Below, piece after piece: positions 22,344 to 36,568 of a stretch of DNA of 64,000 nucleotides; the first letter of the stretch is position 1, and each line of letters opens with the position of its first letter. The notes beneath the pieces were generated by a model. It did not search any database. It saw only the letters and a list, made by a program, of their open reading frames with translations, and had not been told where the DNA came from. A program made the translations under genes and the position numbers. The DNA is from an uncultured Actinomycetota bacterium (GTDB lineage: Bacteria; Actinomycetota; Actinomycetes; Actinomycetales; Microbacteriaceae). The DNA lies in contig CAWGQN010000001.1 of NCBI GenBank assembly GCA_963824885.1, positions 143,482 to 207,481 of the forward strand. Direction: 5' to 3'.

Positions 22344-22510
22344 GGCGGCCTTTCTTGCGGGGGTGCGAGTGGCGCACCTCTCGGAACTCCAATAGGACTC
22401 GGTAGCCGCTAATCATATCCGATGAGCAACGGCAACCTCGCTCGACGATCACGGCCCGCGGTGGTTGACACGGCGACCGTTTCTCGCGACGCAACTCGAG
22501 GTCAGACAAA

Positions 22511-22556
22511 GAAAGCTGGGCGACCCAACCGCGTACGGCGGGGCGCCCAGCTTTAT
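22511..22556 (-). terminator. stem-loop downstream of the first adhesin gene
   Basis: agctgggcg (22514-22522) pairs with cgcccagct (22544-22552). On the minus strand the stem is followed by TTTCTTTG. It lies 12 nt after the stop of the 22568 gene. Confidence 0.6.
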
Positions 22557-22567
22557 CGTGTGAGTCA

Positions 22568-23914
22568 TTAGACCCGTCGTCGTCGAGCCCTCACGATCAA
22601 AATAAAACCGACCGCAGAAACGAGGGCGGCTATCGCAACGATTCCGAATATTTCCGCACCGGTCGATGCCAAGATATTCTGCGGGTCCGGGTTGGCCGGT
22701 ACCGATTGCGGCGTCGTTGTCGGTGGCACTTGCGGTGCCGCGGAAGGAGTTGGCGTTGGAGCAGGGCTCGGTGGGTTCTCCTCGGGTGTTGACGGGTTGG
22801 GGGTGTCCTTGTGCGATGGTGGGACCGGGGTTTCCTTTTCAGGGACGTCGGTACCCACCCCCGTGCCTCCGGTCGTGTTTTCGATTTCTCGCTTCACTTT
22901 TTTCTCTTGTTGATCGCCGGGAGTCGAATACGTAAACGTGTTCTCGTAGTCGATTCGAGGCTGCGATTCGGTGATCGTTGCGTTAATTGACGCGGTAATT
23001 GATTCGTAGGCGTCAATACTCTTCGGAACCTCGAACGTCACCTTTGTCTTGTCGCACGAAGCAACTTTTACCCTCCCGTCCGGCATCGCCGGGTCGTAAC
23101 CGGCGCCCAAATTCTTTTGATAATAGTGATAACTGGCGCTTGCGCAATCAAAGGCCATCCCACTGCCGCCGGGCAACTCGTCGGTGATGACGATCGGACC
23201 GGGTTGCTCGGTGTCCGTCACGGGAAGAGCCAGGCTCCACTCAATCGCCCGTTTCGAATCGGTTTCTCCCTCTTTTTTCGGCGACGCCCAGTACCCCCAT
23301 TTCATTGCGGGCCGGGTCTTATTGGGGGTGGATGGCTCCGATTGAGACGGCCCGCTCGAAGGATTACTATCTCCAATCGGCACCACGTGCCCATTGATAC
23401 TCTTCGTGACTTGTTTCTTCTCGTCGAGCGGTTGTTCCTCGACGCGACGAACAGAGAAATATCCGTCGCCGTGAACGTTCAGCGGATGGTCGGTCACGTA
23501 ATCGGTCAGAGTGAATGTTGCGGTCTTGTCATGCCACGTGCCCGTTGCAATTGCGCGACCGCCGCCGCCCTTTGGCGCCCCCGCGACTTGTTCTTTCAAG
23601 GTAATCGGAACGATGTCGGCGCTTTCCAGACCGTCCGGAAGAACGAGGGTAAACGTGTCGCCCGGTTGAGAGTGATCGGGAACCGCCCACGTGAATTTCA
23701 GTTCCGTCACCGAACCGTTGGGGCCCATTGCCGTCGTGGCTGGGAAACTCGTGATTGCCCCGTCGATTGTTGCCGCCGTGGCGGATTGAGGGCGAACGAT
23801 TGCGCCCGCCGATGCTAGAGAGACGGCTCCCACCGAAAGCGCCGCCATCAACGCCATCGACCGTTTCAAATGATCGGGACGTCGATTGTTTTTGCCCACG
23901 CCACTGTCGCGCAT
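22568..23914 (-). CDS. LAxTG-anchored MSCRAMM/collagen-binding-like surface adhesin (B1)
   Basis: RBS GAAGGAG before the MRDSG start and a signal peptide ...ALMAALSVGAVSLASAGA. The N-terminal Ig-like adhesin region has FTWAVPDHSQPGDTFTLVLP, followed by a Cna-A-like IEWSLALPV...ITDELP block and a Pro/Thr-rich stalk. The C-terminus is LASTG, then a hydrophobic helix and RARRRRV. Confidence 0.85.
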   Translation of the reverse strand: MRDSGVGKNNRRPDHLKRSMALMAALSVGAVSLASAGAIVRPQSATAATIDGAITSFPATTAMGPNGSVTELKFTWAVPDHSQPGDTFTLVLPDGLESADIVPITLKEQVAGAPKGGGGRAIATGTWHDKTATFTLTDYVTDHPLNVHGDGYFSVRRVEEQPLDEKKQVTKSINGHVVPIGDSNPSSGPSQSEPSTPNKTRPAMKWGYWASPKKEGETDSKRAIEWSLALPVTDTEQPGPIVITDELPGGSGMAFDCASASYHYYQKNLGAGYDPAMPDGRVKVASCDKTKVTFEVPKSIDAYESITASINATITESQPRIDYENTFTYSTPGDQQEKKVKREIENTTGGTGVGTDVPEKETPVPPSHKDTPNPSTPEENPPSPAPTPTPSAAPQVPPTTTPQSVPANPDPQNILASTGAEIFGIVAIAALVSAVGFILIVRARRRRV

Positions 23915-24082
23915 TGTGCTCCTTCTCATTCTGACTACCGTGTTCATCGAACGTGAACATCGTTCCGGTCGGATAGAGAAAGAGTCATCGCGGTCGTGAC
24001 GCAATAGGGCTTGTTTTCACCCTGTGCCGGTTAAAGAATCGCCCTCGAGGACCACAGTGTGACGCGCTTTAGAGGGTAAATA

Positions 24083-24122
24083 GGCCGGGCGGCACCATCA
24101 TCCCGAATGGTGCCGCCCGGCC
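24083..24122 (-). terminator. perfect 16-bp stem hairpin downstream of adhesin B2
   Basis: ggccgggcggcaccat / atggtgccgcccggcc with an 8-nt loop catcccga, 16 nt after the B2 stop. The same hairpin sequence recurs at 29871 and partly at 31035. Confidence 0.65.
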
Positions 24123-24137
24123 TCCAGCAGGAGCGCG

Positions 24138-25244
24138 TTAGACGCGGCGCCTGCGGGCCATGACCACCAGAATCAATCCGGCGGCAGCAACGAGTGCCGC
24201 GAGCCCAATGATGCCAATTACCTCAGCCCCGGTTGGTGCGAGCGCGGGAGTGGGAGGCTCGGCACTCGGAACGCCTGCGGGAACGTCGGCGGGAACGTCC
24301 GCGGGAACGACCGACGGGGTGTCGGACGACGCGGGAGTCGTTGTCTCTGGCGTCGTCGTAGCCGGCTGCTCGGGTGCGGCAGGTGGCGCGGTCGCGACCG
24401 TCGTCGGAACACGAGGAGCTTCCGGCGTCGGAGGCGCCACGGGAGTGGGCGTTGACTCAGACGGTGGCACGGGAACCGGTGTCGGTTCCGGGCACGGCTT
24501 CGCAACCGGGACGGGTACTGGTTCCGGGCACGGCTTCGCAACCGGGACCGGAGCGGGCTCGGGACGCGGCTCCGTCACGACGGGAACCGGTGCTGGTTCC
24601 GGGCACGGTTTCGCAACCGGGACGGGTGCTGGTTCCGGGCACGGCTTCGCAACCGGGGCCGGAGCGGGCTTCGGGCACGGAAAGGCCGGCCGAATCGGCG
24701 TCAGGCCCGCTCCTGAGAGTGGCGAGCCATACGTGTGCGTGCTCTCAATGAGAACCGGTGAATTTCCCGCGGTGAACTGATTCGGCGTGTACGTGACCTG
24801 CGAACCGCTATCGGTTCCTTCGCTCACGCGACACGTGGACCCGGTGGGAACACGCGTGGCTCCCGAGCCACCCGGAACGACCGGGACTCGGAGGACGCCG
24901 CCCGGCAATTCCGGGGTACACGACAATCGTGCGACGTAGCCGACGGGAAGAGTATCTGACGCCGTGCCGACAATCTGATCGCGGAATTCCACGGGCGCAA
25001 AGCTGGGACTCGACGAATCGTTGGTGACGACCGGCTTTTCGCCATTCGTGGCCGTCGACGAATTGGCTGAATGTGCGCTTGTCGCCGAATCCGCCGTCGT
25101 CTCAGCGGATGCCGACTGAACGGTTGCGAAAGCACCAATCGCTACGATTGACAAAGAGCCAATCGCAAGCGCCGCCTTCGGCATGACGGACCGTCTCGAA
25201 CGGTTGGGATTTCGATCGGTTTTTTCCACGCCGAATTTGCGCAT
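24138..25244 (-). CDS. LAxTG-anchored surface protein with one two-Cys domain and a Cys/Pro-rich repeat stalk (B2)
   Basis: RBS GGAGGA and a signal peptide ending SASA. One domain is LSCTPELPGG...GSTCRVSEG, followed by five KPCPEPAPVPVA-type repeats. The C-terminus is LAPTG, then a TM helix and ARRRRV. Confidence 0.85.
   Translation of the reverse strand: MRKFGVEKTDRNPNRSRRSVMPKAALAIGSLSIVAIGAFATVQSASAETTADSATSAHSANSSTATNGEKPVVTNDSSSPSFAPVEFRDQIVGTASDTLPVGYVARLSCTPELPGGVLRVPVVPGGSGATRVPTGSTCRVSEGTDSGSQVTYTPNQFTAGNSPVLIESTHTYGSPLSGAGLTPIRPAFPCPKPAPAPVAKPCPEPAPVPVAKPCPEPAPVPVVTEPRPEPAPVPVAKPCPEPVPVPVAKPCPEPTPVPVPPSESTPTPVAPPTPEAPRVPTTVATAPPAAPEQPATTTPETTTPASSDTPSVVPADVPADVPAGVPSAEPPTPALAPTGAEVIGIIGLAALVAAAGLILVVMARRRRV
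24484..24690. repeat. tandem 36-bp (12-codon) in-frame repeats
   Basis: The unit ggttccgggcacggcttcgcaaccgggacgggtact is repeated at 24484, 24520, 24595 and 24631, with diverged units between and after them. On the minus strand they encode KPCPEPAPVPVA. Confidence 0.9.
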
Positions 25245-25457
25245 GGGTATCCTCCACGGGTAGGGGGGTTAACGTGCTCAGGGATTTAAGCGACGTTCGG
25301 GTGATAACGAGGACGATTGTGCCAATCAATGACGCAAATGCAATGAGAACCTACCGGTGGCCTTTCGTGCCGACGAGCGCGCGAATACACCCGCGCAGAG
25401 AGCTCTCGTCCGCGCGTGGTCGCGGCGTGCCGGGACGTGACACGCGCCTCGTTCCCT

Positions 25458-25485
25458 GCGAATCCGGCGCAAAGGCCGGATTCGC
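25458..25485 (-). terminator. 11-bp stem hairpin downstream of the giant repeat gene
   Basis: gcgaatccggc / gccggattcgc with loop gcaaag, about 140 nt after the B3 stop. There is no clear U-tract, so terminator function is uncertain. Confidence 0.35.
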
Positions 25486-25624
25486 GGCACCAATTTCTGC
25501 TCGAGGCTCGAGACAGCGTGACCAAAGACACGCTTTGCATGAGCGCAAAATAATTGAAATAGGTCCCAGTTAATTTCACCCTCAAGTGGAGGATTTTTTC
25601 ACCCTCTACGCGTGATTGTTCATC

Positions 25625-28600
25625 CTAACGGGCCACGGTGGTGATGACTTTCACGCTCGTTTCCGGCAAGAAAACGAAGCTCTGGCTCGGCTCATACGAG
25701 ACGCTTGCCCCAGCCGGTGGGTTGAGCGCTTGAAGCGTGCACGTCGAACCGAGCGAAAAGAAGCCCGTGCTCAGCGCCGCGGAATTTGGCCCAAGCGCCA
25801 GTGTTTCCGACGCTACTGGACCACCGCTCGGCGCGGTGCACGTGAGACTCACGAGGGAGCTCGTTGACGGCGGCAACGGCGGCATCCCCTCGACCACGAC
25901 ATTGGTGACAAATATTTTTCGCGGCGCGTAGTAGTTCGCCACCGCTACGGTCACGGGAGAATCGCCCGCAAGAAACGTCGCGGGACTATACGAGACCGTA
26001 GCGTTTGGCGGCGGAGTCGATTCCACGACACCGCACATTGACCCACTCGTAACCTGTTGCACAACGGGCGTTCCATCGGCTGGCAACTCCACGGGGTAGG
26101 TCACTGCGGGACCGCCAGCTCCCGGCGTGCACGTCACCATCACCACGTAACCGCTTGGCGCTGGTTCGGGGGGAAATCCTTGGACAGCGGTGTGCAATTT
26201 TACCGGCGTTGTCGGAATCACCGTTGGATACGTGTTCACAATGGTCACGTGTGCGCACTGCGGACCGACCGTAAACGTCGCACCGGGTTCATACGTCACC
26301 GTCGCACCCGCGGGCGTCGGTTCATTGACGGTGCACGACGACCCCACCGCAATCCCGAGCGTCGAGACGACCGTCCCGTCCGCGGGAAGCGTCAACACCA
26401 CCGGATCAGTCGGCGTCCCCCCGGGAGGAGTACACGTCAACGTCGCACCATACGAATCAGGAACCGGAACCGGCGGCGTTCCCACGACAGACTTATGAAC
26501 ATTCACACTCACCGTCGACGGAACAAACGAGTTGAAAACCGTAACATGAGTGCCCTGCGGGCCCGCGACAAACGTCGCACCGGGATCATACGTGACCATC
26601 GCACCCGATGGCGGGTTCGGCTCGTCAATCGTGCACGACGACCCCACCGCAATCCCGAGCGTCGAGACCAAGGAACCATCAGCCGGAAGCGTCAACGCAA
26701 CTGGACCAGTCGGCGTCCCCCCGGGAGGAGTACACGTTAACGTCGCACCATACGAATCAGGAACCGGAACCGGCGGCGTTCCCACGACAGACTTATGAAC
26801 ATTCACACTCACCGTGGGCGTAACAAACGTGTTCACAATCGTTACATTCGCACCCTGCGGACCCGCGACAAACGTCGCACCGGGTTCATACGTCACCGTC
26901 GCACCCGCGGGCGGCATCGGTTCATCAACGATACAGAACGACCCCACCGCAATCCCCGGCGTCGAGACCACGGAACCATCAGCCGGAAGAGTCACGACGA
27001 CCGGTTTACCGGGAACACCCACCGGAGGAGTACACGTCAACGTCGCACCATACGATTCAGGAATCGGAACCGGCGGCGTCCCGACGACCGACTTATGGAG
27101 AGTCGCAGAAACCGTCGTGGGCGCATAAGAGTTCAGAATCGTCGCGTTCGCACCCTGTGGACCCACCGTAAACGTCGCACCGGGTTGATACGTGACGGTC
27201 GCACCCGCAGGCGGCATGGGTTCCTCAACGGTGCACGATGACCCCACCGCAATCCCCGGCGTCGAGACCACGGAACCATCAGCCGGAAGAGTCAACGCTA
27301 CCGGCTGACCAGGAACACCGAGCGGAGGAGTACACGTCAACGTCGCACCATACGATTCAGGAACCGGAACCGGCGGCGTCCCGTTAATCGCTTTATTAAT
27401 ATTCACGCTCACTGTCGGCGGCCCAAAGGTATTCGTTACCGTCACTATCGCACCGTGCGGACCAACGGTGAAGGTCGCGGAAGGGGCATACGTCACCGTC
27501 GCACCCGCGGGCGGAGAAGGCTCGTCAACCGTGCACGACGACCCCACGACAATCCCGGGTGTCGAGACGACAGTCCCATCCACCGGAAGACTCACCACCA
27601 CGGACTCGCCCGGAGTCCCACCGGGAGGAGTACACGTCACCGTCACCGCAAACGAATCGGGTACCGGAGTCGGGGGCATCCCCACGACCGCTTTGTGCGT
27701 GCCGACCGTCGCCGTCGCCGGCGCAAACGTATTCACAACCGTCACATCCGCACCCTGCGGACCCGCAACAAAAGTCGCACCGGGCTCATACGTCACGGTC
27801 GCACCCGCCGGAGGGTTCGGCTCGTCAATCGTGCACGACGACCCCACCGCAATTCCCGGCGTCGACACAACGGTCCCGTCCGCCGGAAGACTCACCACCA
27901 CCGGCTGACCAGGAATACCCACGGGAGGAGCACACGTCAACGTCACCGCATACGAATCAGGAACCGGAGTCGGGGGCGTCCCCACGACCGCCTTGTGACT
28001 GCTCACCGTGACTGTCGCGGGTCCAAAGTAGTTCTTGACAATCACATCGATTCCGTTCGTGCCCACGACAAAAGTCGCCCCGGGATCGAACGTCACAATT
28101 GCACCCGCCGGAGGGTTCGGCTCGTCAATCGTGCACGACGACCCCACGGCAATCCCCGCGGTTGACACGACTGTTCCATCTGCGGGAAGAGCCACCATGA
28201 CCGGGTCACTCGGAGTCCCGCCGGGAGGAGTACACGTCACGGTCGCCGCATACGAATCGGGTACCGGTGTCGGGGGTGTGCCCTCGACGGTTTTGTGCAT
28301 GCCTATCGTCGCCGTTGCCGGCGGAAAGGTATTTACTATCGTCACATCTGCGCCCTGCGGACCCGCATCAAAAGTCGCACCGGGCTCATACGTGACCGTC
28401 GCACCCGCCGGAGGAGAAGACTCCTCTATTGTGCACGACGAACCCACCTCAATCGAGGGCGTCGACACGACGGTCCCATCGGCCGGAAGCACGACTATCA
28501 CCGGCTCAGTCGGAATACCGATCGGAGGAGTACACGTCAACGTCGCCGCATACGAATCGGGTGCGGGAGTCGGGGGTGTCCCCACGACGGCCTTGTGGAT

Positions 28601-29740
28601 ACCGACGGTGACCGTGTCAGGTCCGAAGGAGTTGACGACCGTCGCGTCCGCACCCTGCGGTCCTACCGTAAACGTCGCACCGGGTTCATACGTCACGGTC
28701 GCGCCAACCGGAGGAGCAGGCTCGTCGAGCGTGCACGACGACCCCACCGCAATTCCCGGCGTCGAAACCACGGAACCATCCGCGGGAAGCGTCACGGCAA
28801 CGGGATCACCCGGAATCCCACCGGGGGGCGTACACGTCACAGTCGCAGCGTATGACTGAGGCGCTGGAACCGAAGGACTACCGACAATCGCTTTATGGAT
28901 ATTCACGCTCACCGTCGCCGGAACGAACGTATTCGTTACCGTGACAATGACGCCGTGCGGACCGACCGTAAAGGTTGCCCCAGGGGCATACGTCACGGTC
29001 GCATCGGCGGGAGGAGAGGGTTCGTCGGCGGTACACGACGACCCCACCGCAATTCCCTGCGTCGAGACCACGGAACCATCCGCGGGAAGAGTCAGGGCAA
29101 CGGGGTCACCTGGAACCCCACCCGGAGGAGTACACGTTAGCGTCGCACCGTACATTTCGGGCATGGGAACGGTCGGCGTTCCCACGACGACCTTATGCAC
29201 TCCCACGCTCACGGTCGTGACCACGACAATCGTCAACGAAACATCGCCGTTGATCAGATACGTTGTTGTCCCATTGGCGACGGGGTCATTGAGCGTGACG
29301 CCAAAAAAACCGGTCCCCGTGATATTGAGCGGTTGTGTCGTTACAAAGCTTGTCAACGTGCACGTCGCGGTTTGGCCAACCCACGCACAATTCGCCATCG
29401 CCGAGCCGTCGGCTGCCAAGAGATCGAACGCCTCTCCCCCGGTCGACGTCAGCTCGGTCGGCAGCGCGATGGTGAACGTGTCGCCCTCCGGAGTGTTATC
29501 CGGAACGCCCCACACAAAGTCGAGCTTGAAAGAGCTGCCGTTCGTCACCGATGGCGCCGTCGTGGACACGCTTGTGATTGCACCGGGTACGTCCGCCGCC
29601 CTCGCCGCGTGCGTTGGCACGAGTGCACCAATCGAGACAAGCGACAGTGTTGTCAACAACAACGCCGAAAGCGATGAAAGCCACCGCCTCATCCAGCCTT
29701 TTTCGACGGAAACGATCACATTACCGGCGGCGTTTTCCAT
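25625..29740 (-). CDS. giant secreted repeat protein (B3): adhesin-type N-domain plus 12 tandem two-Cys ~100-aa domains, with no C-terminal anchor
   Basis: Uninterrupted frame of 1371 codons from MENAAG (RBS GAGGGGGGA). The signal peptide is MRRWLSSLSALLLTTLSLVSIGALVPTHAARA. The N-domain FVWGVPDNTPEGDTFTIALP is homologous to B1. It is followed by 12 units of ...SYxATLTCTPPxGxPGxPVxxxLPADGxVVSTPGIAVGSSCTxxEPxPPAGATVTYEPGATF.... The protein ends ...VKVITTVAR with no LAxTG motif or TM helix. Confidence 0.9.
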   Translation of the reverse strand: MENAAGNVIVSVEKGWMRRWLSSLSALLLTTLSLVSIGALVPTHAARAADVPGAITSVSTTAPSVTNGSSFKLDFVWGVPDNTPEGDTFTIALPTELTSTGGEAFDLLAADGSAMANCAWVGQTATCTLTSFVTTQPLNITGTGFFGVTLNDPVANGTTTYLINGDVSLTIVVVTTVSVGVHKVVVGTPTVPMPEMYGATLTCTPPGGVPGDPVALTLPADGSVVSTQGIAVGSSCTADEPSPPADATVTYAPGATFTVGPHGVIVTVTNTFVPATVSVNIHKAIVGSPSVPAPQSYAATVTCTPPGGIPGDPVAVTLPADGSVVSTPGIAVGSSCTLDEPAPPVGATVTYEPGATFTVGPQGADATVVNSFGPDTVTVGIHKAVVGTPPTPAPDSYAATLTCTPPIGIPTEPVIVVLPADGTVVSTPSIEVGSSCTIEESSPPAGATVTYEPGATFDAGPQGADVTIVNTFPPATATIGMHKTVEGTPPTPVPDSYAATVTCTPPGGTPSDPVMVALPADGTVVSTAGIAVGSSCTIDEPNPPAGAIVTFDPGATFVVGTNGIDVIVKNYFGPATVTVSSHKAVVGTPPTPVPDSYAVTLTCAPPVGIPGQPVVVSLPADGTVVSTPGIAVGSSCTIDEPNPPAGATVTYEPGATFVAGPQGADVTVVNTFAPATATVGTHKAVVGMPPTPVPDSFAVTVTCTPPGGTPGESVVVSLPVDGTVVSTPGIVVGSSCTVDEPSPPAGATVTYAPSATFTVGPHGAIVTVTNTFGPPTVSVNINKAINGTPPVPVPESYGATLTCTPPLGVPGQPVALTLPADGSVVSTPGIAVGSSCTVEEPMPPAGATVTYQPGATFTVGPQGANATILNSYAPTTVSATLHKSVVGTPPVPIPESYGATLTCTPPVGVPGKPVVVTLPADGSVVSTPGIAVGSFCIVDEPMPPAGATVTYEPGATFVAGPQGANVTIVNTFVTPTVSVNVHKSVVGTPPVPVPDSYGATLTCTPPGGTPTGPVALTLPADGSLVSTLGIAVGSSCTIDEPNPPSGAMVTYDPGATFVAGPQGTHVTVFNSFVPSTVSVNVHKSVVGTPPVPVPDSYGATLTCTPPGGTPTDPVVLTLPADGTVVSTLGIAVGSSCTVNEPTPAGATVTYEPGATFTVGPQCAHVTIVNTYPTVIPTTPVKLHTAVQGFPPEPAPSGYVVMVTCTPGAGGPAVTYPVELPADGTPVVQQVTSGSMCGVVESTPPPNATVSYSPATFLAGDSPVTVAVANYYAPRKIFVTNVVVEGMPPLPPSTSSLVSLTCTAPSGGPVASETLALGPNSAALSTGFFSLGSTCTLQALNPPAGASVSYEPSQSFVFLPETSVKVITTVAR
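25628..29218. repeat. about 300-bp tandem coding repeats (12 units, the central ones nearly identical)
   Basis: Identical strings recur at exact 300-bp spacing. For example, accccaccgcaatcccgagcgtcgagac occurs at 26341 and 26641, and accccaccgcaatccccggcgtcgagaccacggaaccatcagccggaagagtca at 26941 and 27241. Confidence 0.9.
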
Positions 29741-29870
29741 TGTGTCCCCCCTCAGGACGAGGCCCTCGTACACACGTTGGACGCGGTACCTCAATCGAGA
29801 GACGACCAAACAACCAAATCGTGACGCCACGACGCAAAGAAGAATTTTACGAGCGGAGCGCTGCGCGTGA

Positions 29871-29912
29871 AAACCGGGCGGCACCATAATCCCGAATGGT
29901 GCCGCCCGGTTT
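29871..29912 (-). terminator. intrinsic terminator hairpin downstream of adhesin B4
   Basis: aaaccgggcggcaccat / atggtgccgcccggttt, a 17-bp stem with 8-nt loop aatcccga and flanking A/T tracts (TTTT after the stem on the minus strand). It lies 23 nt after the B4 stop. Confidence 0.75.
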
Positions 29913-29934
29913 GACCTTGTGCGTCAGAAACGAG

Positions 29935-30858
29935 TTATGCGTGGCGCCTTCGTCGCATCAATACGACAACGATTCCTAGGCCAACCGCAAGTGCACCCAA
30001 TGGAATCAATTGGCTGCCCGCATCACCGGACGCTGCTAGTTCAGGGGCCGCGGGAGCCTGCTCTACCGGTGCAGGTGCAGGTGCAGGTGCAGGTGCAGGT
30101 GCAGGTGCAGGTGCAGGTGCAGGCGAGGTATACGTATTTGTCACAACGACAAGCGTGTCTACGCCGAATTGCACGGTAACCGTGGGGCTCGGGGAGTATG
30201 TAACGGCGGCTCCCGCCGGCGGGCTGGTCTCGTTGACCGTGCACGATGAATCACTAAGAATTCCCGGAATCACCGTAGCAGGAGCCCCAGGAATAAGGGG
30301 CGGCACCGGAAAACTGATAGGCGCTTCCCCTGGGAGCGCGCACGACAGTGTCACCGCGTAGTCAGCAGGCGCCGGAGCCGGAGCCGTCCCCACGACAACC
30401 TTTTGTATGCCGATAGTCGTTGGCTCCCTGAAGGTGTTGGTCACAGTAACTTGAAAATCTGTGGTAGCCGTAAAGGTGGGGTGGTCAATAGTGACGGTCG
30501 CTCCCACTGGCGGATTTGGTTCGGTTGCCGTACACGACGACCCATCGACGAACCCGGGCACGGTCACCAATCCCCCTGTGGCCGAAAACACGAATGGAAC
30601 CGGCGTGCCTGGCGCGCCGCCCGGGGGAGTGCACGTCACAAGCACGGTAAAATTCGCCCCCGCAGGAGGTGGGCCGACAACTGTTTTCAACACGCCAATC
30701 GTGACGGGGGCCGCCTGCGCAAAAGCCGACTCGTGAACCCCGAGAATTCCTAACGGAACGAGCAACATGCCGGCGAGCGACAATGCGCCGAGTGACGCCA
30801 GAACTCGCCTCACGCGCGGCGCGGGCAATGCAGATTGGCCTTTACTAGTGTTTCGCAT
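29935..30858 (-). CDS. surface protein (B4) with two two-Cys domains, a (PA)9 stalk and a deviant LAASG sorting signal
   Basis: Start MRNTSKG is preceded by CCTGAGGGGGGAC, and the signal peptide ends AFAQA. The domains read ...TVLVTCTPPGG...GSSCTATEP... and ...AVTLSCALPGE...DSSCTVNETSPPAGAAVTY. The C-terminus has PAPAPAPAPAPAPAPAPAPV, then LAASG, a TM helix and RRRRHA. Confidence 0.85.
   Translation of the reverse strand: MRNTSKGQSALPAPRVRRVLASLGALSLAGMLLVPLGILGVHESAFAQAAPVTIGVLKTVVGPPPAGANFTVLVTCTPPGGAPGTPVPFVFSATGGLVTVPGFVDGSSCTATEPNPPVGATVTIDHPTFTATTDFQVTVTNTFREPTTIGIQKVVVGTAPAPAPADYAVTLSCALPGEAPISFPVPPLIPGAPATVIPGILSDSSCTVNETSPPAGAAVTYSPSPTVTVQFGVDTLVVVTNTYTSPAPAPAPAPAPAPAPAPAPVEQAPAAPELAASGDAGSQLIPLGALAVGLGIVVVLMRRRRHA
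30068..30121. repeat. perfect hexanucleotide microsatellite (GGTGCA)9
   Basis: Nine uninterrupted ggtgca units, in frame, encoding (Pro-Ala)9 on the minus strand. Confidence 0.95.
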
Positions 30859-30911
30859 CGTTCGTCCCCCCTCAGGGCAAAAAGCACTCACAATCATGTG
30901 GGCCACTCATC

Positions 30912-30939
30912 ACTTTAACATGAAAGAGCCAAAAATCAA
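30912..30939 (-). promoter_or_regulatory. candidate housekeeping-type promoter of B4 (TTGATT-N16-TAAAGT)
   Basis: On the minus strand the -35 TTGATT is at 30939-30934 and the -10 TAAAGT at 30917-30912. The same hexamer positions are conserved upstream of B5. Not experimentally supported. Confidence 0.4.
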
Positions 30940-31078
30940 CACATCCTGACACGGCACGGCAAATCGCGCGTTGACCCATTGCGTTGTTCCGTAGATTGTC
31001 AATCTACACGTCGTGGTTATGGTCGGCAACGCACCCCGAATGGTGCCGCCCGGTTTGACCTTGTACTTCACGGGCGCG

Positions 31079-32686
31079 CTATACGCGGCGCCTGCTGGTC
31101 ATGACCAACAGGACGATCCCCGTGCCGAAAAGAAACGCACCGAAAACACTGTGCGACGTGAGCGCATCACCGGCGGAGGCAAGAGCGAGTGCGGCAGGCA
31201 CGGTAGCGGGCCCTTCGAAAATGTTCGTCGCCTCAATTGTGACCGCCTGGTCAATCATGAAGTTCCCCTCGCCCGGATCACTCGTGATGACGACACCGGT
31301 ATCGAATGTGGTGTTCGAAATGATCGATTGGCTCGCGCCGTTGGTCACCGTCTCCGTCGCAAAGCAGTGGGAACCGCCGGGAAGCAAAAGGGGGTTCCCC
31401 GTCGGATCGAGCGCGGTTGCCTTTTCACCCGCACGAACGGTCAAGGTGTGGTGATAGAGCGGCAATCGTATCGTTCCTCCCGACGCTGACTCCGGCACGT
31501 CAATTTCGCACGTCACATCGAACGAGAACGAGGCTCCCTGCACCTCGGGCGAATTCGACTCGGCGCCCGACACGGTCTTTGCGACACTGACTGTGCCGGC
31601 CGAATAGTGATTGACGAAATCAATTTGGTTGCCGGTGCCCGCGATGATCGTCACCGGACCTGAGTTCGTCGGGGGAATACTCGGCCCAACCTCGCCAAAT
31701 AGCGGCGCCTCGAAAGCCGTGCACATGGAACCCACTGGCATTCCGCCGATCGGGTCGGAATGAATGATGGTGTCGACGAGCCCCGTACCTGCGATGCCGA
31801 CCGGGAAGTCCGTGAGCCCTGGAACTGGATCTCCAGTCGGTGACACGCATGTCAGAAAAAAATGAAACGTGTGGTGTGCGAAGGCTTGAGCGCCCAGCCC
31901 CGCGAGAGTCTTGGTGATGGTCATAGTAGAAAATTCATTTGTAACCGTCACGTCGGCGCCATTGGGTCCGACGATGAACGTCGCACTGGGGCTGTACGTC
32001 ACGGTCGCGCCCGCTGGTGGCGTGGTCTCATTGATCGTGCACGACGAACCAACGAAGATTCCCGGAGTTGACACGACGGTTCCGTCCGCAGGAAGTGACA
32101 CTTGGACCGCCGGAAGCGCGGTGCCCCCGGCCGGAGTGCAAATCAGCGTTGCATCGAATGTCGCCGGCACGGGCGATGTCGGTGTGGTGTTGACGAGCGC
32201 TTTTTGGGCCCTCACGGCGACTTGCGCGGGAAAGGTGTTGGTGATGTGCACGACGGCACCGTTCGACCCAACATTGAACGCGACCCCCGCGGTGATCGGA
32301 CTCCCATTCAAGTCGTACGTCACGACCGCACCCGCGGGCGGATTGGTCTCGACGATTGTGCACGATGAGTTAGCGGGGACACCACCCGGCACAAAAAAAA
32401 TCGTGCCGTCAGCGAGGACCGTCACCGATGTTACGGTCGGCGAACCACCGGGAGGAGTACACGTTAGAGTCGCCGTGTAGCTGGTTGGGGCCGGCGAGAG
32501 AGGCGTACCGCTGACTATTTTCTGTACTGCAAACGCAGGCCCCTGCGCAAAAGCCGACTCGTGAACCCCGAGAATTCCTAACGGAACGAGCAACAAGCCG
32601 GCGAGCGACAAGGCGCCGAGTGACGCCAGAAGCCGCCTAACGCGCGCCGCCCGCAAGGCAAATTGGCCTCTATTAGTGATACGCAT
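31079..32686 (-). CDS. surface protein (B5) with four two-Cys domains and a deviant LASAG sorting signal
   Basis: Start MRITNRG is preceded by CCTGAGGGGGGGAC. The signal peptide is near-identical to that of B4. Domains include TATLTCTPPGG...NSSCTIVETNPPAGAVVTY, ATLICTPAGG...GSSCTINETTPPAGATVTY, FFLTCVSP...GSMCTAFE and FDVTCEID...GSHCFATE. The C-terminus is LALASAGD, then a TM helix and SRRRV. Confidence 0.85.
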   Translation of the reverse strand: MRITNRGQFALRAARVRRLLASLGALSLAGLLLVPLGILGVHESAFAQGPAFAVQKIVSGTPLSPAPTSYTATLTCTPPGGSPTVTSVTVLADGTIFFVPGGVPANSSCTIVETNPPAGAVVTYDLNGSPITAGVAFNVGSNGAVVHITNTFPAQVAVRAQKALVNTTPTSPVPATFDATLICTPAGGTALPAVQVSLPADGTVVSTPGIFVGSSCTINETTPPAGATVTYSPSATFIVGPNGADVTVTNEFSTMTITKTLAGLGAQAFAHHTFHFFLTCVSPTGDPVPGLTDFPVGIAGTGLVDTIIHSDPIGGMPVGSMCTAFEAPLFGEVGPSIPPTNSGPVTIIAGTGNQIDFVNHYSAGTVSVAKTVSGAESNSPEVQGASFSFDVTCEIDVPESASGGTIRLPLYHHTLTVRAGEKATALDPTGNPLLLPGGSHCFATETVTNGASQSIISNTTFDTGVVITSDPGEGNFMIDQAVTIEATNIFEGPATVPAALALASAGDALTSHSVFGAFLFGTGIVLLVMTSRRRV

Positions 32687-32740
32687 CGTTCGTCCCCCCC
32701 TCAGGGCAAAAAGCACTCACAATCATGTGGGCCACTCATT

Positions 32741-32768
32741 ACGCTAACATGAACGAGCCAGAAATCAA
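32741..32768 (-). promoter_or_regulatory. candidate promoter of B5 (TTGATT-N16-TAGCGT)
   Basis: Positional homologue of the B4 element within the duplicated 5' block. Confidence 0.4.
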
Positions 32769-32824
32769 CACGTTCTGACACGGCACGACAAATCGTGAGT
32801 TGTCGCCCGCTCGCGCCTCGAAAT

Positions 32825-33667
32825 CTACGAGTCGTCCGCTGCGCGCGGTCCCACGGGTACTCCGCCGACGGAATTGCCGGTCGTTGGGTTCGCCGTCGTG
32901 GCGGCGTCGGAATTGGCCGGACACATCATCAGCCTCGAAAGCTCCGACCCCACGTTATTGGCTTCCACGAGCATGTGCGCGCACCGCTCGCACGATTTCA
33001 GGTGTTTTTCCACGCGCACGACGTCGCGTTTACCGAGTCCGTTTCGAACATACGAACCCAAATACTCGAGGGCCCAGTGACACTCCGTACCGCCCGGTGC
33101 CGACGCGAGGTGCGCTCGAATCCACGCTTGCCTCAACCCCTCGCGCGCCCGATAATTGAGCGCGGCAACCGCGTTCGGTTTGATGCCCAAGAGTGGCGCG
33201 ACCTTTTGCGGAGAGAGACTCTCCACCTCGCTGTACCACAGGGCTTGTTGCCATCGAGTGGGCAACAAGCGAAATGCGCGAATCGCGAACTCTCGATCAA
33301 TCGCAGCAGATCTCGTCTCGTCTGATAAGTGCGGATCGGGAACCTCCTCGATCGCGCCAATCGACGTGTCGTGCTTCGCGCGCGCCCACGCAATGGCCGT
33401 GTTTCTGACGGTCGTGAATAAGTACGGGCGAAATGCGAGCGTCGGACCACCACCATTTCGCATCGAGTGGAAGATTTTCGCAAACGCCTCGGAGACAAGA
33501 TCATCGGAATCAAACGACGTCGTATATGATCGTGCAACCGCGGTCGCGGCGCGCGCGTGACGGTGCCACAGCTCGCCAAATGCGCCACTGTCACCCCCGC
33601 GAGTCAGATCGATTAATTCGGTGTCACTGCGTATCACCGGAGGGCCGGTGGGCGCATCAGGGGCCAT
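32825..33667 (-). CDS. ECF-type sigma-70 family sigma factor with fused C-terminal zinc-finger anti-sigma (ZAS, zf-HC2) domain
   Basis: Region 2 reads DLVSEAFAKIF...RPYLFTTVRNTAIAW and region 4 reads LPTRWQQALWYSEVESLSPQKVAPLLGIKPNAVAALNYRAREGLRQ. These are followed by CHWALEYLG...VEKHLKSCERCAHMLVEA (H-x3-C-x2-C). No TM helix follows. RBS AAGGA. Confidence 0.85.
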   Translation of the reverse strand: MAPDAPTGPPVIRSDTELIDLTRGGDSGAFGELWHRHARAATAVARSYTTSFDSDDLVSEAFAKIFHSMRNGGGPTLAFRPYLFTTVRNTAIAWARAKHDTSIGAIEEVPDPHLSDETRSAAIDREFAIRAFRLLPTRWQQALWYSEVESLSPQKVAPLLGIKPNAVAALNYRAREGLRQAWIRAHLASAPGGTECHWALEYLGSYVRNGLGKRDVVRVEKHLKSCERCAHMLVEANNVGSELSRLMMCPANSDAATTANPTTGNSVGGVPVGPRAADDS

Positions 33668-33800
33668 TTGTGGTGGTTCCTTATTTTGTTAAAGGATCGT
33701 GTCTTCTGCGCGTCATGATGCCAGTTTGCCCACCGTTTGTCGATTGCGCACCGCCCATATTCCCGCGCGTTCCGAACAAAAATTCACCCCCGCACACGGG

Positions 33801-34625
33801 TCACGACCTCAGCGACGCTCCATGAAACACTCGATCCAACAGCGCGAAGAGTGGCGCGTCATACGTTGTCAGCCTGGCGCGCGTACTGACCTCGTTGTGA
33901 ACGCCGTCGCCACCAACCGGACCGGTGTGATTCACGTCGAAGTAACTCTGGACGCCCTCGGCCCAATACTCGCGCATTGCTGACCCGGCGTACGTATTCC
34001 TCCATCGACCAGCGGCGAGCGCCGCATTCCACGCGCTTCGCAGTTCAGGCATGAATGTCGCGTCATCGTATTGCAACGCCATTTCCATGAGCGTGTGGCC
34101 GAACTCGTGAACAAACGCGTTCTCACCGTTCAGGTTGTCCATGAGATTGGCCTCTGTTCCCACCGAAATCGGAAGGCTATCAGTCGCTCCCATTCCGCCC
34201 CAATACCTGTCATCGAGAGAAGTACCAAAAATCGCGTTCACTTCGGGAATATTGCTCATCCGCTCGCCGCGCGCCGTGATGACTACTCGAATATTGTGGC
34301 GGTTCAGCGAGGGAACCGGCCACGACGGATACGTCCATAGCAAGGTTCCCATCTCGTTCTTGGCGCGTATCAACGTCGCGTCGTCAACGCTGCGCGAACC
34401 AAGGACGGGTACGCCCCACGCGTCAATATATTTGCCGTAAAAGTTCGTGTCGAGTCGATATTTATCGGCAATATCCCGCGGTACGCCAGAAACAACGGAC
34501 TGGGCCGAGGTTTCAGACGTCGCGCTCGCGCTTATCGATGCGGGCACCGCAACCAGCGCACTCACCGAAAGAAAAGCTGTCAAGGCGAAAAGAGGTCGTC
34601 GATTTATAGCTGACATAAGAGTCAT
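33801..34625 (-). CDS. Tat-signal secreted zinc metalloprotease (HExxH ... ExxAE), paralog 1
   Basis: INRRPLFAL twin-Arg-like signal ending SASA. FVHEFGHTLME zinc motif, with Y and EYWAEGVQSYF about 40-47 residues downstream. The gluzincin / M34-like family assignment is tentative. Confidence 0.75.
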   Translation of the reverse strand: MTLMSAINRRPLFALTAFLSVSALVAVPASISASATSETSAQSVVSGVPRDIADKYRLDTNFYGKYIDAWGVPVLGSRSVDDATLIRAKNEMGTLLWTYPSWPVPSLNRHNIRVVITARGERMSNIPEVNAIFGTSLDDRYWGGMGATDSLPISVGTEANLMDNLNGENAFVHEFGHTLMEMALQYDDATFMPELRSAWNAALAAGRWRNTYAGSAMREYWAEGVQSYFDVNHTGPVGGDGVHNEVSTRARLTTYDAPLFALLDRVFHGASLRS

Positions 34626-34725
34626 CCAATCAATGCACTAGGTTCTTCGGGTCAACCGTGCAACGAGCACCCCATACTGTCTCACACATTCGAGAAAAAA
34701 GGAATACCCAATCCCCCCAAGAAGG

Positions 34726-35586
34726 TCACGTCCTCAGCGACGCTCCACGAAACACTCGATTAAGAAGCGCGAAGAGTGGCGGATCATACTCTTTCAGTCT
34801 GTCCCGCGTGTAAACGTCGTTATTAATGCCGTTTCCGCCAACCGGGCCGGGCCTACCGACGTTGAAATACGTCTGGACGCCTTCGGCCCAATACTCTTTC
34901 ATGGCCGAACCAGCGTACGTGTTATTCCATCGCCCGGTCGCATTCGCCGAATCCCACGCATTCTGCAATTCAGGAGAGAAGTTCGTATCAATGTGTGACA
35001 ACGACATGTCCATGAGGGTGTGGCCGAATTCGTGGACAAACACGTTCTCGTTGTCATAATTGTCGATAAGGTTCGCCTCTGTACCAACGGAGAGCGGAAC
35101 GCGATCCGTTGCTCCCATTCCACCCCAATACGCCTCGTCAAACGTTCTGCCACCACCCCACCGCGTGCGATCATTGAGAACCGAACCGTACTCGGCGTAT
35201 ACCTCGGGAATGTCGCTCATGTGCTCGCCTCGCGCCGCAAGTACGACTCGAACGTTGCGCCGGCTCAACTCGGGAACCGGCCACCAGGGGTACGTCCACA
35301 AGAGCGTTCCCATTTGAGTCCTGGCCCGCACGAGCGTCGCATCGTCGAGCCTGTTAGAGCCGAGAATGGGCACGCCCCACGCGTTAATGTACTTGCCATA
35401 CCAGTTCGTGTCGAGTCCGTATTTATCGGCAATTTCCTGCGGGACACGCGAAACGGAAGCCTTTTCCGAGAGCGCCGGATTCGCACTCGCGCTGAGCGCG
35501 GGGGGAACTGCGGCCAGAGCACCAACGGCACCTCCCGCGGCCAAGAAAACAAACGAGCGTCGATTCACTGTTGACATGACAGTCAT
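34726..35586 (-). CDS. Tat-signal secreted zinc metalloprotease (HExxH ... ExxAE), paralog 2
   Basis: VNRRSFVFLAAGG twin-Arg signal ending SASA, FVHEFGHTLMDM and KEYWAEGVQTYF. Colinear with paralog 1 over its full length. Confidence 0.75.
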   Translation of the reverse strand: MTVMSTVNRRSFVFLAAGGAVGALAAVPPALSASANPALSEKASVSRVPQEIADKYGLDTNWYGKYINAWGVPILGSNRLDDATLVRARTQMGTLLWTYPWWPVPELSRRNVRVVLAARGEHMSDIPEVYAEYGSVLNDRTRWGGGRTFDEAYWGGMGATDRVPLSVGTEANLIDNYDNENVFVHEFGHTLMDMSLSHIDTNFSPELQNAWDSANATGRWNNTYAGSAMKEYWAEGVQTYFNVGRPGPVGGNGINNDVYTRDRLKEYDPPLFALLNRVFRGASLRT

Positions 35587-35668
35587 CCAATCCGTGCACT
35601 AGGTTCTTCGGGTTAACCGTGCAACAAGCGCCCTTCTCTCACACCGGGGGAAGAAAAGCGGGATGATG

Positions 35669-35741
35669 TGACCCCAGCGGGATTCGAACCCGCGTTACCG
35701 CCGTGAGAGGGCGATGTCCTGGGCCGCTAAACGATGGGGCC
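35669..35741 (-). tRNA. tRNA-Glu (anticodon CUC)
   Basis: GGCCCCATCGTTTAGCGGCCCAGGACATCGCCCTCTCACGGCGGTAACGCGGGTTCGAATCCCGCTGGGGTCA folds as a cloverleaf by hand. The 7-bp acceptor stem has one G-U pair, the anticodon loop is CUCUCAC and the T-loop is TTCGAAT. CCA is not encoded. Confidence 0.92.
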
Positions 35742-36482: not shown

Positions 36483-36496
36483 AAGCGCACGTGTTG

Positions 36497-36568
36497 CTGG
36501 GGTACCTGGACTCGAACCAAGAACAACTGAACCAGAATCAGCCGTGTTGCCAATTACACCATACCCCA
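36497..36568 (-). tRNA. tRNA-Gln (anticodon CUG)
   Basis: TGGGGTATGGTGTAATTGGCAACACGGCTGATTCTGGTTCAGTTGTTCTTGGTTCGAGTCCAGGTACCCCAG has a cloverleaf with anticodon loop UUCUGGU and T-loop TTCGAGT. Confidence 0.92.

Follow-up and report, generated by a model that had tools for sequence, protein, structure and literature searches.

A 12-unit DUF5979 stalk protein with a signal peptide but no sortase sorting signal in a surface-protein locus of an uncultured Microbacteriaceae bacterium

Introduction

Adhesins of the MSCRAMM type with stalks of CnaB B-repeats, such as Cna, SdrC/D/E and ClfA of Staphylococcus aureus and Ace of Enterococcus faecalis, combine a signal peptide, N-terminal immunoglobulin (Ig)-like domains of the Big_8 or DEv-IgG type and a tandem stalk of CnaB-like domains with an LPXTG/LAxTG sorting signal. 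Covalent attachment to peptidoglycan by sortase requires such a C-terminal sorting signal. Here we describe a protein that resembles these adhesins in its signal peptide, its N-terminal Ig-like domain and its tandem CnaB-like stalk but lacks the sorting signal. It is encoded on the reverse (-) strand at positions 25625-29740 of a 64-kb stretch of DNA (hereafter the window; contig CAWGQN010000001.1) of an uncultured bacterium of the Microbacteriaceae, and its stalk is formed by 12 units of the family DUF5979; we will refer to it as the 12-unit protein. It differs from the MSCRAMMs also in having one Ig-like A-domain, whereas these possess a pair (N2-N3 or N1-N2) for the dock-lock-latch or collagen-hug mechanism, and in the nature of its units, which are of the actinobacterial DUF5979 subtype with a predicted extra disulfide.

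The giant adhesin of Mobiluncus mulieris (47I, PDB 5U5O/5U6F; PMC10619420) likewise consists of repetitive Ig-like domains of ~100 aa with a Lys-Asn isopeptide bond and a disulfide, but it counts 51 domains, has alternating ester-bond domains and a thioester tip, and is LPXTG-anchored. Other multi-repeat DUF5979 proteins of the Actinomycetota (P0002, P0008, P0009, and P0021 in our searches) have the repeat family, the Cys pair and the TNTF-type last strand in common with the 12-unit protein, but they end in an LAxTG/LPxTG-like motif, a transmembrane (TM) helix and an Arg tail, which the 12-unit protein does not. Anchored adhesins can reportedly lose their sorting signal and be exported but released, as in premature-stop variants of InlA of Listeria monocytogenes and in FnBPA/B of S. 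aureus Newman. Those cases involve point nonsense mutations or frameshifts with the dead tail still visible, whereas here no remnant of a tail is seen and the protein ends at a domain boundary.

Results

Reading Frame, C-Terminus, and Host

The gene forms a complete open reading frame (ORF) of 1371 codons in a single uninterrupted frame, followed by a TAG stop (25625-25627), and thus encodes an anchorless stalk protein of 1371 aa (25625-29740, -). A public database copy (P0001) is identical over its 1371 aa, is a singleton, and lies on a 292-kb contig. The 4.1-kb frame contains neither a frameshift nor an internal stop and is preceded by a good ribosome-binding site (RBS): the leader CCTGAGGGGGGAC (29744-29756, -) ends 3 nt upstream of the ATG at 29740. 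According to the original prediction, made from the sequence alone, this leader is shared with two neighbouring surface-protein genes, here called B4 and B5, which proved to be exact for B4 (30864-30876), whereas the copy before B5 (32693-32705) has two mismatches.

The protein ends in …SVKVITTVAR, with the stop two residues past the last strand of unit 12. That it would stop right after its 12th domain, with no sorting signal or membrane anchor, had also been predicted, and this holds in every frame: no LAxTG motif, TM helix and Arg-rich tail was found after the stop in three frames, nor is one hidden in the last 680 nt. A tail concealed by a frameshift or by read-through is thereby ruled out. 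The sequence 'LPETS' near the C-terminus was considered as a sorting motif and rejected, as it has no Gly, helix or basic tail, leaves 10 residues only, and corresponds in the alignment to the 'GPQGA' loop of the remaining units. Since the LAxTG/LPxTG motif, the hydrophobic helix and the basic tail are all lacking, the protein cannot be a substrate of sortase, while it does possess a Sec signal peptide as judged by inspection and hydropathy. It also lacks the sorting signal and the adjacent sortase signature of a sortase-assembled pilin, a comparison in which the pilin motif was not specifically searched. In the ORFs of >150 aa across the 64-kb window no TLxTC sortase signature is present, and neither Pfam nor NCBIfam detected a wall-binding module (LysM, SLH, GW, choline-binding etc.) in the protein.

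Judged from the sequences of its homologues, such an anchorless end is not normal for the DUF5979 family. Among 1.84 billion representative proteins, 63 homologues were detectable with HMMER, and at least 46 of these have an L[PA]xTG-like motif, a helix and a basic tail at the C-terminus; the majority of the others are visibly frameshifted or truncated within a domain. No relative of >47% identity was found among these representatives. The nearest one (P0002) is anchored and 37-47% identical, and it was ruled out as an orthologue by its context (L001), which is unrelated housekeeping DNA. Exact look-ups and word-indexed, HMMER, genome-contig and metagenome searches did not yield any orthologue with an intact 3' end. 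The word-indexed protein search returned only the protein itself and two distant proteins, the protein scan of genome contigs gave no match, and two metagenome scans recovered only the already known contig. A search with the two C-terminal units, the query of which included the stop codon and may have been weakened by it, gave no match.

The LeuC encoded in the window is at most 81% identical to that of Microbacteriaceae (Gryllotalpicola, Terrimesophilobacter, Microbacterium, and others) and the host genome has no entry among 185,579 species representatives; the host is therefore a member of a poorly sampled lineage of the Microbacteriaceae with ~60% GC.

Signal Peptide and N-Terminal Domain

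The Sec-type signal peptide comprises aa 1-47 (29600-29740, -) and was recognized by sequence inspection and hydropathy. This signal-peptide-like N-terminus of the 1371-aa protein reads MRRWLSSLSALLLTTLSLVSIGALVPTHAARA, followed by AD beyond the predicted cleavage point, and consists of a basic n-region, a hydrophobic core of 21 aa, and a cleavage site predicted by inspection between A-R-A and A. Hydropathy peaks at aa 21-25, and the N-terminus is the sole TM-like hydrophobic segment of the protein besides beta-strand runs. The AxA site followed by A is also conserved in B1, another of the neighbouring surface proteins, and in P0065, a metagenomic relative discussed below. As aa 1-47 contain no Cys, and hence no lipobox Cys, the protein is not a lipoprotein.

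The signal peptide is followed by an Ig-like domain of ~125 aa (aa 48-176; 29213-29599, -), which precedes the first stalk unit and is of the MSCRAMM type: Pfam Big_8 (PF17961) matches aa 65-156 with E=2.1e-9. Structure prediction, which had been proposed for both the N-domain and a stalk unit, gave an AlphaFold2 (AF2) model of the N-domain with a predicted local distance difference test score (pLDDT) of 81, and Foldseek aligned this model with the Ig domains of SdrC, ClfA, Cna, Cnm, Ace, FnBPA, and UafA (TMq 0.6-0.73). The N-domain is 38% identical to that of B1, and Cys118/Cys127 form a lineage-specific pair within it. It is presumed to be the ligand-binding tip, although the assignment to the MSCRAMM type is limited by the fact that their A-region comprises two adjacent DEv-IgG subdomains whereas only one Ig-like domain is present here.

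The Stalk

The profile hidden Markov model (HMM) of Pfam DUF5979 (PF19407), the family that had been suggested for these repeats, matches the protein with E=1.9e-111 and 366 bits (gathering cut-off 25) in 11 stretches; unit 12 falls under the per-stretch threshold, yet it aligns with the other units. Mapping of the Cys positions confirmed 12 two-Cys units in one exported protein: pairs occur at 203/236 and at every 100 residues from there up to 1103/1136, and subsequently at 1204/1236 and 1301/1334. In an alignment of all units of the locus this Cys pair is invariant in all 12. The total number of Cys is odd (27), and the extra Cys that had been noticed in the GPQCAH sequence of unit 10 is Cys1162 (codon 26255-26257, -), which is unpaired and occupies a position where the other units have Gly.

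Units 1-10 (26219-29212, -) form a DUF5979/CnaB-like stalk with an exact 300-nt period. They contain the Cys pair in the motifs TCTPP ... SSCT and, in register in all ten, a Lys/Glu/Asn triad, represented by HK in the first strand, (D/E)E(P) after the second Cys, and VxN(T/S)F in the last strand. Unit 11 (25922-26218, -) has diverged (≤45% identity to the others) but is folded in the AF2 model; it retains the Cys pair, the Glu and the Asn, and its Lys is displaced by two residues (VKLHT). Unit 12 (25628-25921, -) is the most diverged (≤38% identity) and has kept the Cys pair but lost Lys, Glu, and Asn altogether; AF2 nevertheless predicts a complete 8-strand domain for it (strands E199-E293 of the model, pLDDT 59-90).

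The AF2 model of units 10-12 consists of three 8-strand β-domains with a mean pLDDT of 85.8 (~90 for unit 10). Foldseek matched it in the PDB with CnaB domains of pilins and adhesins (E down to 4e-14), including PitA, T-antigens, SpaC, the Cna B-repeats and the Mobiluncus mulieris adhesin 5U6F, while a sequence search of the PDB with the whole protein gave no match. A profile of the units compared with 5U5O (Mobiluncus 47I) places the Cys pair and the Lys in register, albeit with marginal significance (E=0.057); for the 5U5O domain, the isopeptide and disulfide bonds have been verified by mass spectrometry (PMC10619420). A survey of intramolecular isopeptide bonds has classed DUF5979 among the CnaB-like domains and gives Lys/Glu/Asn as its triad (PMC12617251). 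The protein thus shows the HMM match, the CnaB-type β-sandwich and, in units 1-10, the triad that characterize this family of the Transthyretin clan (CL0287). From the conserved residues and the fold we infer that each unit is stapled by a disulfide and that units 1-10, and perhaps unit 11, have in addition a spontaneous Lys-Asn isopeptide bond.

Because of its regularity, the array had been expected to consist of central units nearly identical at the DNA level and exactly 300 bp apart, and therefore to be unstable in copy number and easily mis-assembled. The spacing is indeed exact from start to start in ten copies, but the DNA of the units is not nearly identical (57-88%). Tandem Repeats Finder reports 74% matches for the array, and pairwise DNA identity of the units is 57-82% in a fixed register and at most 88% in the best register. 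The longest exact word common to two units is 74 bp, all others being ≤55 bp, and between-unit dS is 0.36-1.7 with dN/dS of 0.15-0.45 (Nei-Gojobori). By these measures the array is old and each of its units under purifying selection; units 11 and 12, too, degenerated long ago and not recently. With units as diverged as this, dS of 0.36-1.7 and short shared words, high recombinational instability and mis-assembly are not supported, and the units are distinct enough for ordinary assemblers to place them. Truly identical copies occur in only one tandem repeat of the locus, a perfect (GGTGCA)x9.3 at 30068-30123, which encodes the (PA)n stalk of B4 and is a more plausible site of slippage and length variation than the 300-nt array. 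On the + strand, long ORFs run antisense to the repeat array within 26057-29870 (e.g., 28035-28859 and 28941-29870); these look like artefacts of repeat composition and we do not take them as genes.

The 3' Junction and a Metagenomic Relative

Two copies of AGGGTGAA, 23 nt apart, are located from 20 nt after the stop (25575-25605, -), at the start of a block that is conserved upstream of the next gene, B2. This sequence occurs only three times in the 64 kb, i.e., at 25575-25582 and 25598-25605 upstream of B2 and at 24016-24023 upstream of B1 (all -), and may serve as an operator or promoter element. Downstream of the 12-unit gene there is only one hairpin, a weak one with a stem of 11-13 bp, GCGAATCCGGC/GCCGGATTCGC (25455-25487, -), ~140 nt after the stop, with -28 kcal/mol for the 61-nt stretch and z=-2.8. 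It is weaker than the terminators of the paralogues and is not conserved in the metagenomic contig L082 described below. The paralogue-type terminator (family D15) is a 36-nt hairpin (CCGGGCGGCACCAT…ATGGTGCCGCCCGG) with a perfect stem of 17-18 bp, -38 to -42 kcal/mol and z about -6.5, which occurs after B4 (29874-29909, -), after B2 (24085-24120), in degenerate form after B5 (31018-31053), and at 916-951 in L082. In B2, B4, and B5 a common segment comprising tail and stop (family D14) precedes D15, so that the hairpin accompanies the anchor-tail module. The 12-unit gene has neither D14 nor D15.

A search with the N-domain led to P0065, an ORF of 122 aa present on three independent metagenome contigs (L082-L084). 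These are collinear with the window in carrying the tail of an upstream anchored gene, a homologous promoter/RBS region, and a signal peptide and N-domain like those of the 12-unit protein. The giant-like signal peptide and N-domain run to an 'ANC' motif (65% aa identity over the aligned part). In another frame there then follows the latter half of a terminal domain of the B5 type, which is 56% identical to B5 aa 436-544 and has LALAG, a helix and RRRHA behind it; next come the D15 hairpin, a spacer of ~130 nt, the AGGGTGAA pair and, finally, a B2-like gene. The pair has the same spacing as in the window and is situated ~320-330 nt upstream of the B2-like gene (L082 ~1093-1125). The giant-like gene of L082 (198-892; also in L083 and L084) has thus become a frameshifted remnant consisting of an N-domain fragment, half a terminal domain, and an anchor, and it appears, therefore, that the locus undergoes large deletions between paralogous surface-protein genes. 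Relative to L082, the window lacks the terminal domain, anchor, stop, hairpin and 130 nt between unit 12 and the block upstream of B2.

Two further ideas on this junction were tried and abandoned. The 25 nt after the stop (GAACAA/TCACGCG) were compared, as possible flanks of an excised hairpin, with hairpin-deleted sequences of B4, B2, and L082 by local alignment, but the alignment was no better than that of shuffled sequences (p=0.33-0.42). The notion that B2 is the severed tail of the 12-unit gene was dropped, as the B2 domain is no close copy of unit 11 or 12.

Neighbouring Genes and Genomic Island

All four neighbouring paralogues on the - strand carry LASTG, LAPTG, LAASG or LASAG near their ends and, behind it, a hydrophobic helix and an Arg-rich tail, the arrangement that had been described for them from the sequence, and they share the domain type of the 12-unit protein, with DUF5979 units in B4 and B5 and a degenerate one in B2. 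B4 (29935-30858, -) comprises a signal peptide, two DUF5979 units, the (PA)n stalk, LAASG, a TM helix and RRRRHA, and B5 (31079-32686, -) a signal peptide, four DUF5979-type units, LASAG, a TM helix and RRRV. B2 (24138-25244, -) has a signal peptide, one degenerate DUF5979-like unit in which the isopeptide Lys and Asn are missing, a stalk of PCPEPAPVPVAK repeats with five Cys, LAPTG, a TM helix and RRRRV. In B1 (22568-24004, -, as maximal ORF) the signal peptide precedes a Big_8 Ig domain, which is a paralogue of the N-domain of the 12-unit protein; an additional A-region and a Pro-rich stalk come next, and the protein closes with LASTG, a TM helix and RRRRV.

In the stalk of B2 (24470-24680, -), 36-nt repeats encode the PCPEPAPVPVAK unit ~6 times; with its five Cys and its richness in Pro this stalk resembles an immunoglobulin hinge, which suggests inter-chain disulfides in a homodimer or with a partner. 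The 5' regions of B4 and B5 are 91% identical (30714-30973 vs. 32542-32802), including ~100 nt upstream and near-identical signal peptides, which indicates a recent duplication or gene conversion of this 5' module. The 12-unit gene has only the 13-nt RBS leader in common with these regions.

Directly upstream of the five surface-protein genes lies a gene (32825-33667, -) for an extracytoplasmic function (ECF) sigma factor (regions 2 and 4) fused to an anti-sigma-type zinc finger (zf-HC2), a candidate dedicated regulator of the island. Two paralogous secreted proteins with an HEFGH zinc-peptidase motif are encoded at 33801-34625 and 34726-35586 (-), one of which resembles the anthrax lethal factor domain (PF07737) only weakly, below the match threshold. 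Together, the five surface-protein genes, the ECF sigma/zf-HC2 gene and the two HEFGH genes make up the segment ~22400-35650, which adjoins the 3' side of a tRNA-Glu (35668-35741); a tRNA-Gln is found at 36496-36568. In another uncultured member of the Microbacteriaceae (L015) the order PP2C-TerC-leuC is conserved and the interval from TerC to an MBL-fold hydrolase contains three small genes and no DUF5979 genes. Because the block is absent from this syntenic interval, the segment of ~22.4-35.65 kb behaves as a lineage-specific genomic island. No integrase was seen at it, and no Rfam family matches the locus.

Discussion

The domain architecture of the protein and its lack of a sorting signal are well supported. 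On balance, we find it somewhat probable that the gene encodes an exported stalk adhesin that sortase cannot attach, an explanation that includes the secondary loss of its anchor. The product is a Sec-exported, MSCRAMM-like fibrillar adhesin, the mature form of which has one Ig-like tip and a rod of 12 CnaB-type (DUF5979) domains of ~100 aa each. One disulfide per domain together with a Glu-catalysed Lys-Asn isopeptide bond would render the stalk resistant to proteases and to force. Transpeptidation by sortase to lipid II or peptidoglycan cannot take place, and after cleavage of the signal peptide the protein should be released into the wall or medium or be held only weakly. The anchor may have been lost by a 3' deletion that took a terminal linker or domain, the sorting signal, the stop and the terminator hairpin and left the end of the ORF 20 nt before the block upstream of B2, the relative (L082) having suffered an independent internal deletion; of the readings of this junction it is the simplest. 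To such a deletion we assign an about even or slightly better chance, because the paralogues and the syntenic relative keep the anchor-plus-hairpin module that is missing here. These pointers to a loss of anchor and terminator, as well as the Lys/Glu/Asn triad of the units and the MSCRAMM-type Ig domain at the N-terminus suggested by sequences and models, go beyond what the original prediction contained.

Several points weigh against this explanation. The searches gave no true orthologue with an intact 3' end, and the ancestral state is therefore reconstructed and not observed. The remnant in L082 can also be explained by one deletion spanning the giant-like gene and a following B5-like gene and would, therefore, be silent on the ancestral tail of the 12-unit gene. 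An ORF end at a domain boundary and an intact 4.1-kb frame with a good RBS fit a natively anchorless protein equally well, and the possible traces of hairpin flanks behind the stop lack statistical significance. Furthermore, the isopeptide and disulfide bonds are deduced only from conserved residues and fold, and the cleavage of the signal peptide is predicted by inspection only.

A protein that is natively anchorless and functional, either held at the surface without sortase (through non-covalent docking of the degenerate, cross-link-free unit 12 onto a wall-anchored partner, or through a disulfide from Cys1162 to the Cys-rich stalk of B2) or released as a bridging or matrix adhesin, seems to us rather unlikely. 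It would agree with the intact 1371-aa frame behind a strong RBS that ends exactly after a complete predicted domain, with the purifying selection on the units and the hairpin ~140 nt after the stop, and also with L082 if its remnant is taken to result from a deletion across two genes. The odd number of Cys (27), with one extra in unit 10, and the position of B2 immediately downstream, with five stalk Cys in PCPEP repeats, would also suit a protein held by a partner. However, no known wall-binding module was detected by Pfam or NCBIfam, nearly all complete homologues are anchored, and the searches brought up no other genome in which the anchorless end is conserved. The role of B2 is called into question by the relative, which has kept B2 although its giant-like gene is destroyed, so that B2 is independent of this gene, and Cys1162, the one unpaired Cys on which the disulfide link is based, is a single Gly-to-Cys difference in one unit only. 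We consider it distinctly improbable that B2 and a natively anchorless 12-unit protein form a two-component fibre in which B2, with its hinge-like stalk, acts as a short anchored base and holds a sortase-independent shaft of 12 domains by a Cys1162 disulfide or by docking of unit 12.

The gene might, on the other hand, be a decaying, pseudogene-like remnant that is no longer useful or expressed and is still intact only because the event was recent. This would be in line with the degenerate units 11 and 12, with the location in a lineage-specific island next to tRNA-Glu that is missing from the syntenic L015, and with the destruction of the relative's copy by internal deletion and frameshift on three contigs, which shows that the gene is dispensable in the lineage. 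Yet 4.1 kb without frameshift or internal stop and an RBS and promoter-like upstream region that are conserved with L082 argue against decay, as does the old and not recent origin of the degeneration in units 11 and 12; we regard a remnant as improbable. Least of all do we believe that the missing tail or the number of repeats is an artefact of assembly or sequencing, which appears very improbable. Tandem arrays such as this one, 3 kb long with a period of 300 nt, are notoriously difficult for short-read assemblers, but every unit is distinct (≤88% identity, longest common word 74 bp) and the frame is perfect across all junctions. Moreover, the stop lies in the unique unit 12, outside the array, the unique sequence downstream has a collinear counterpart in the block upstream of B2 in an independent relative, and the identical database copy is on a 292-kb contig.

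Implications

Unless the docking or disulfide hypothesis is true, the 12-unit protein does not represent a new mechanistic class; if the two-component fibre did exist, it would be a stalk adhesin mounted on a Gram-positive wall with sortase bypassed for the shaft. The units of 100 aa, with their disulfide and probable isopeptide bond, could be of interest to protein engineers. If made, the protein would be a natural, fully cross-linked CnaB-type stalk adhesin uncoupled from sortase anchoring, in an essentially unsampled lineage of the Microbacteriaceae, with four anchored paralogues alongside it as built-in controls. The locus would, therefore, be suited for asking what an anchorless stalk adhesin does, i.e., whether it serves as a soluble competitor, as a component of a matrix, or is junk, and for studying how an island of surface-protein genes may turn over by deletion and recombination between paralogues.

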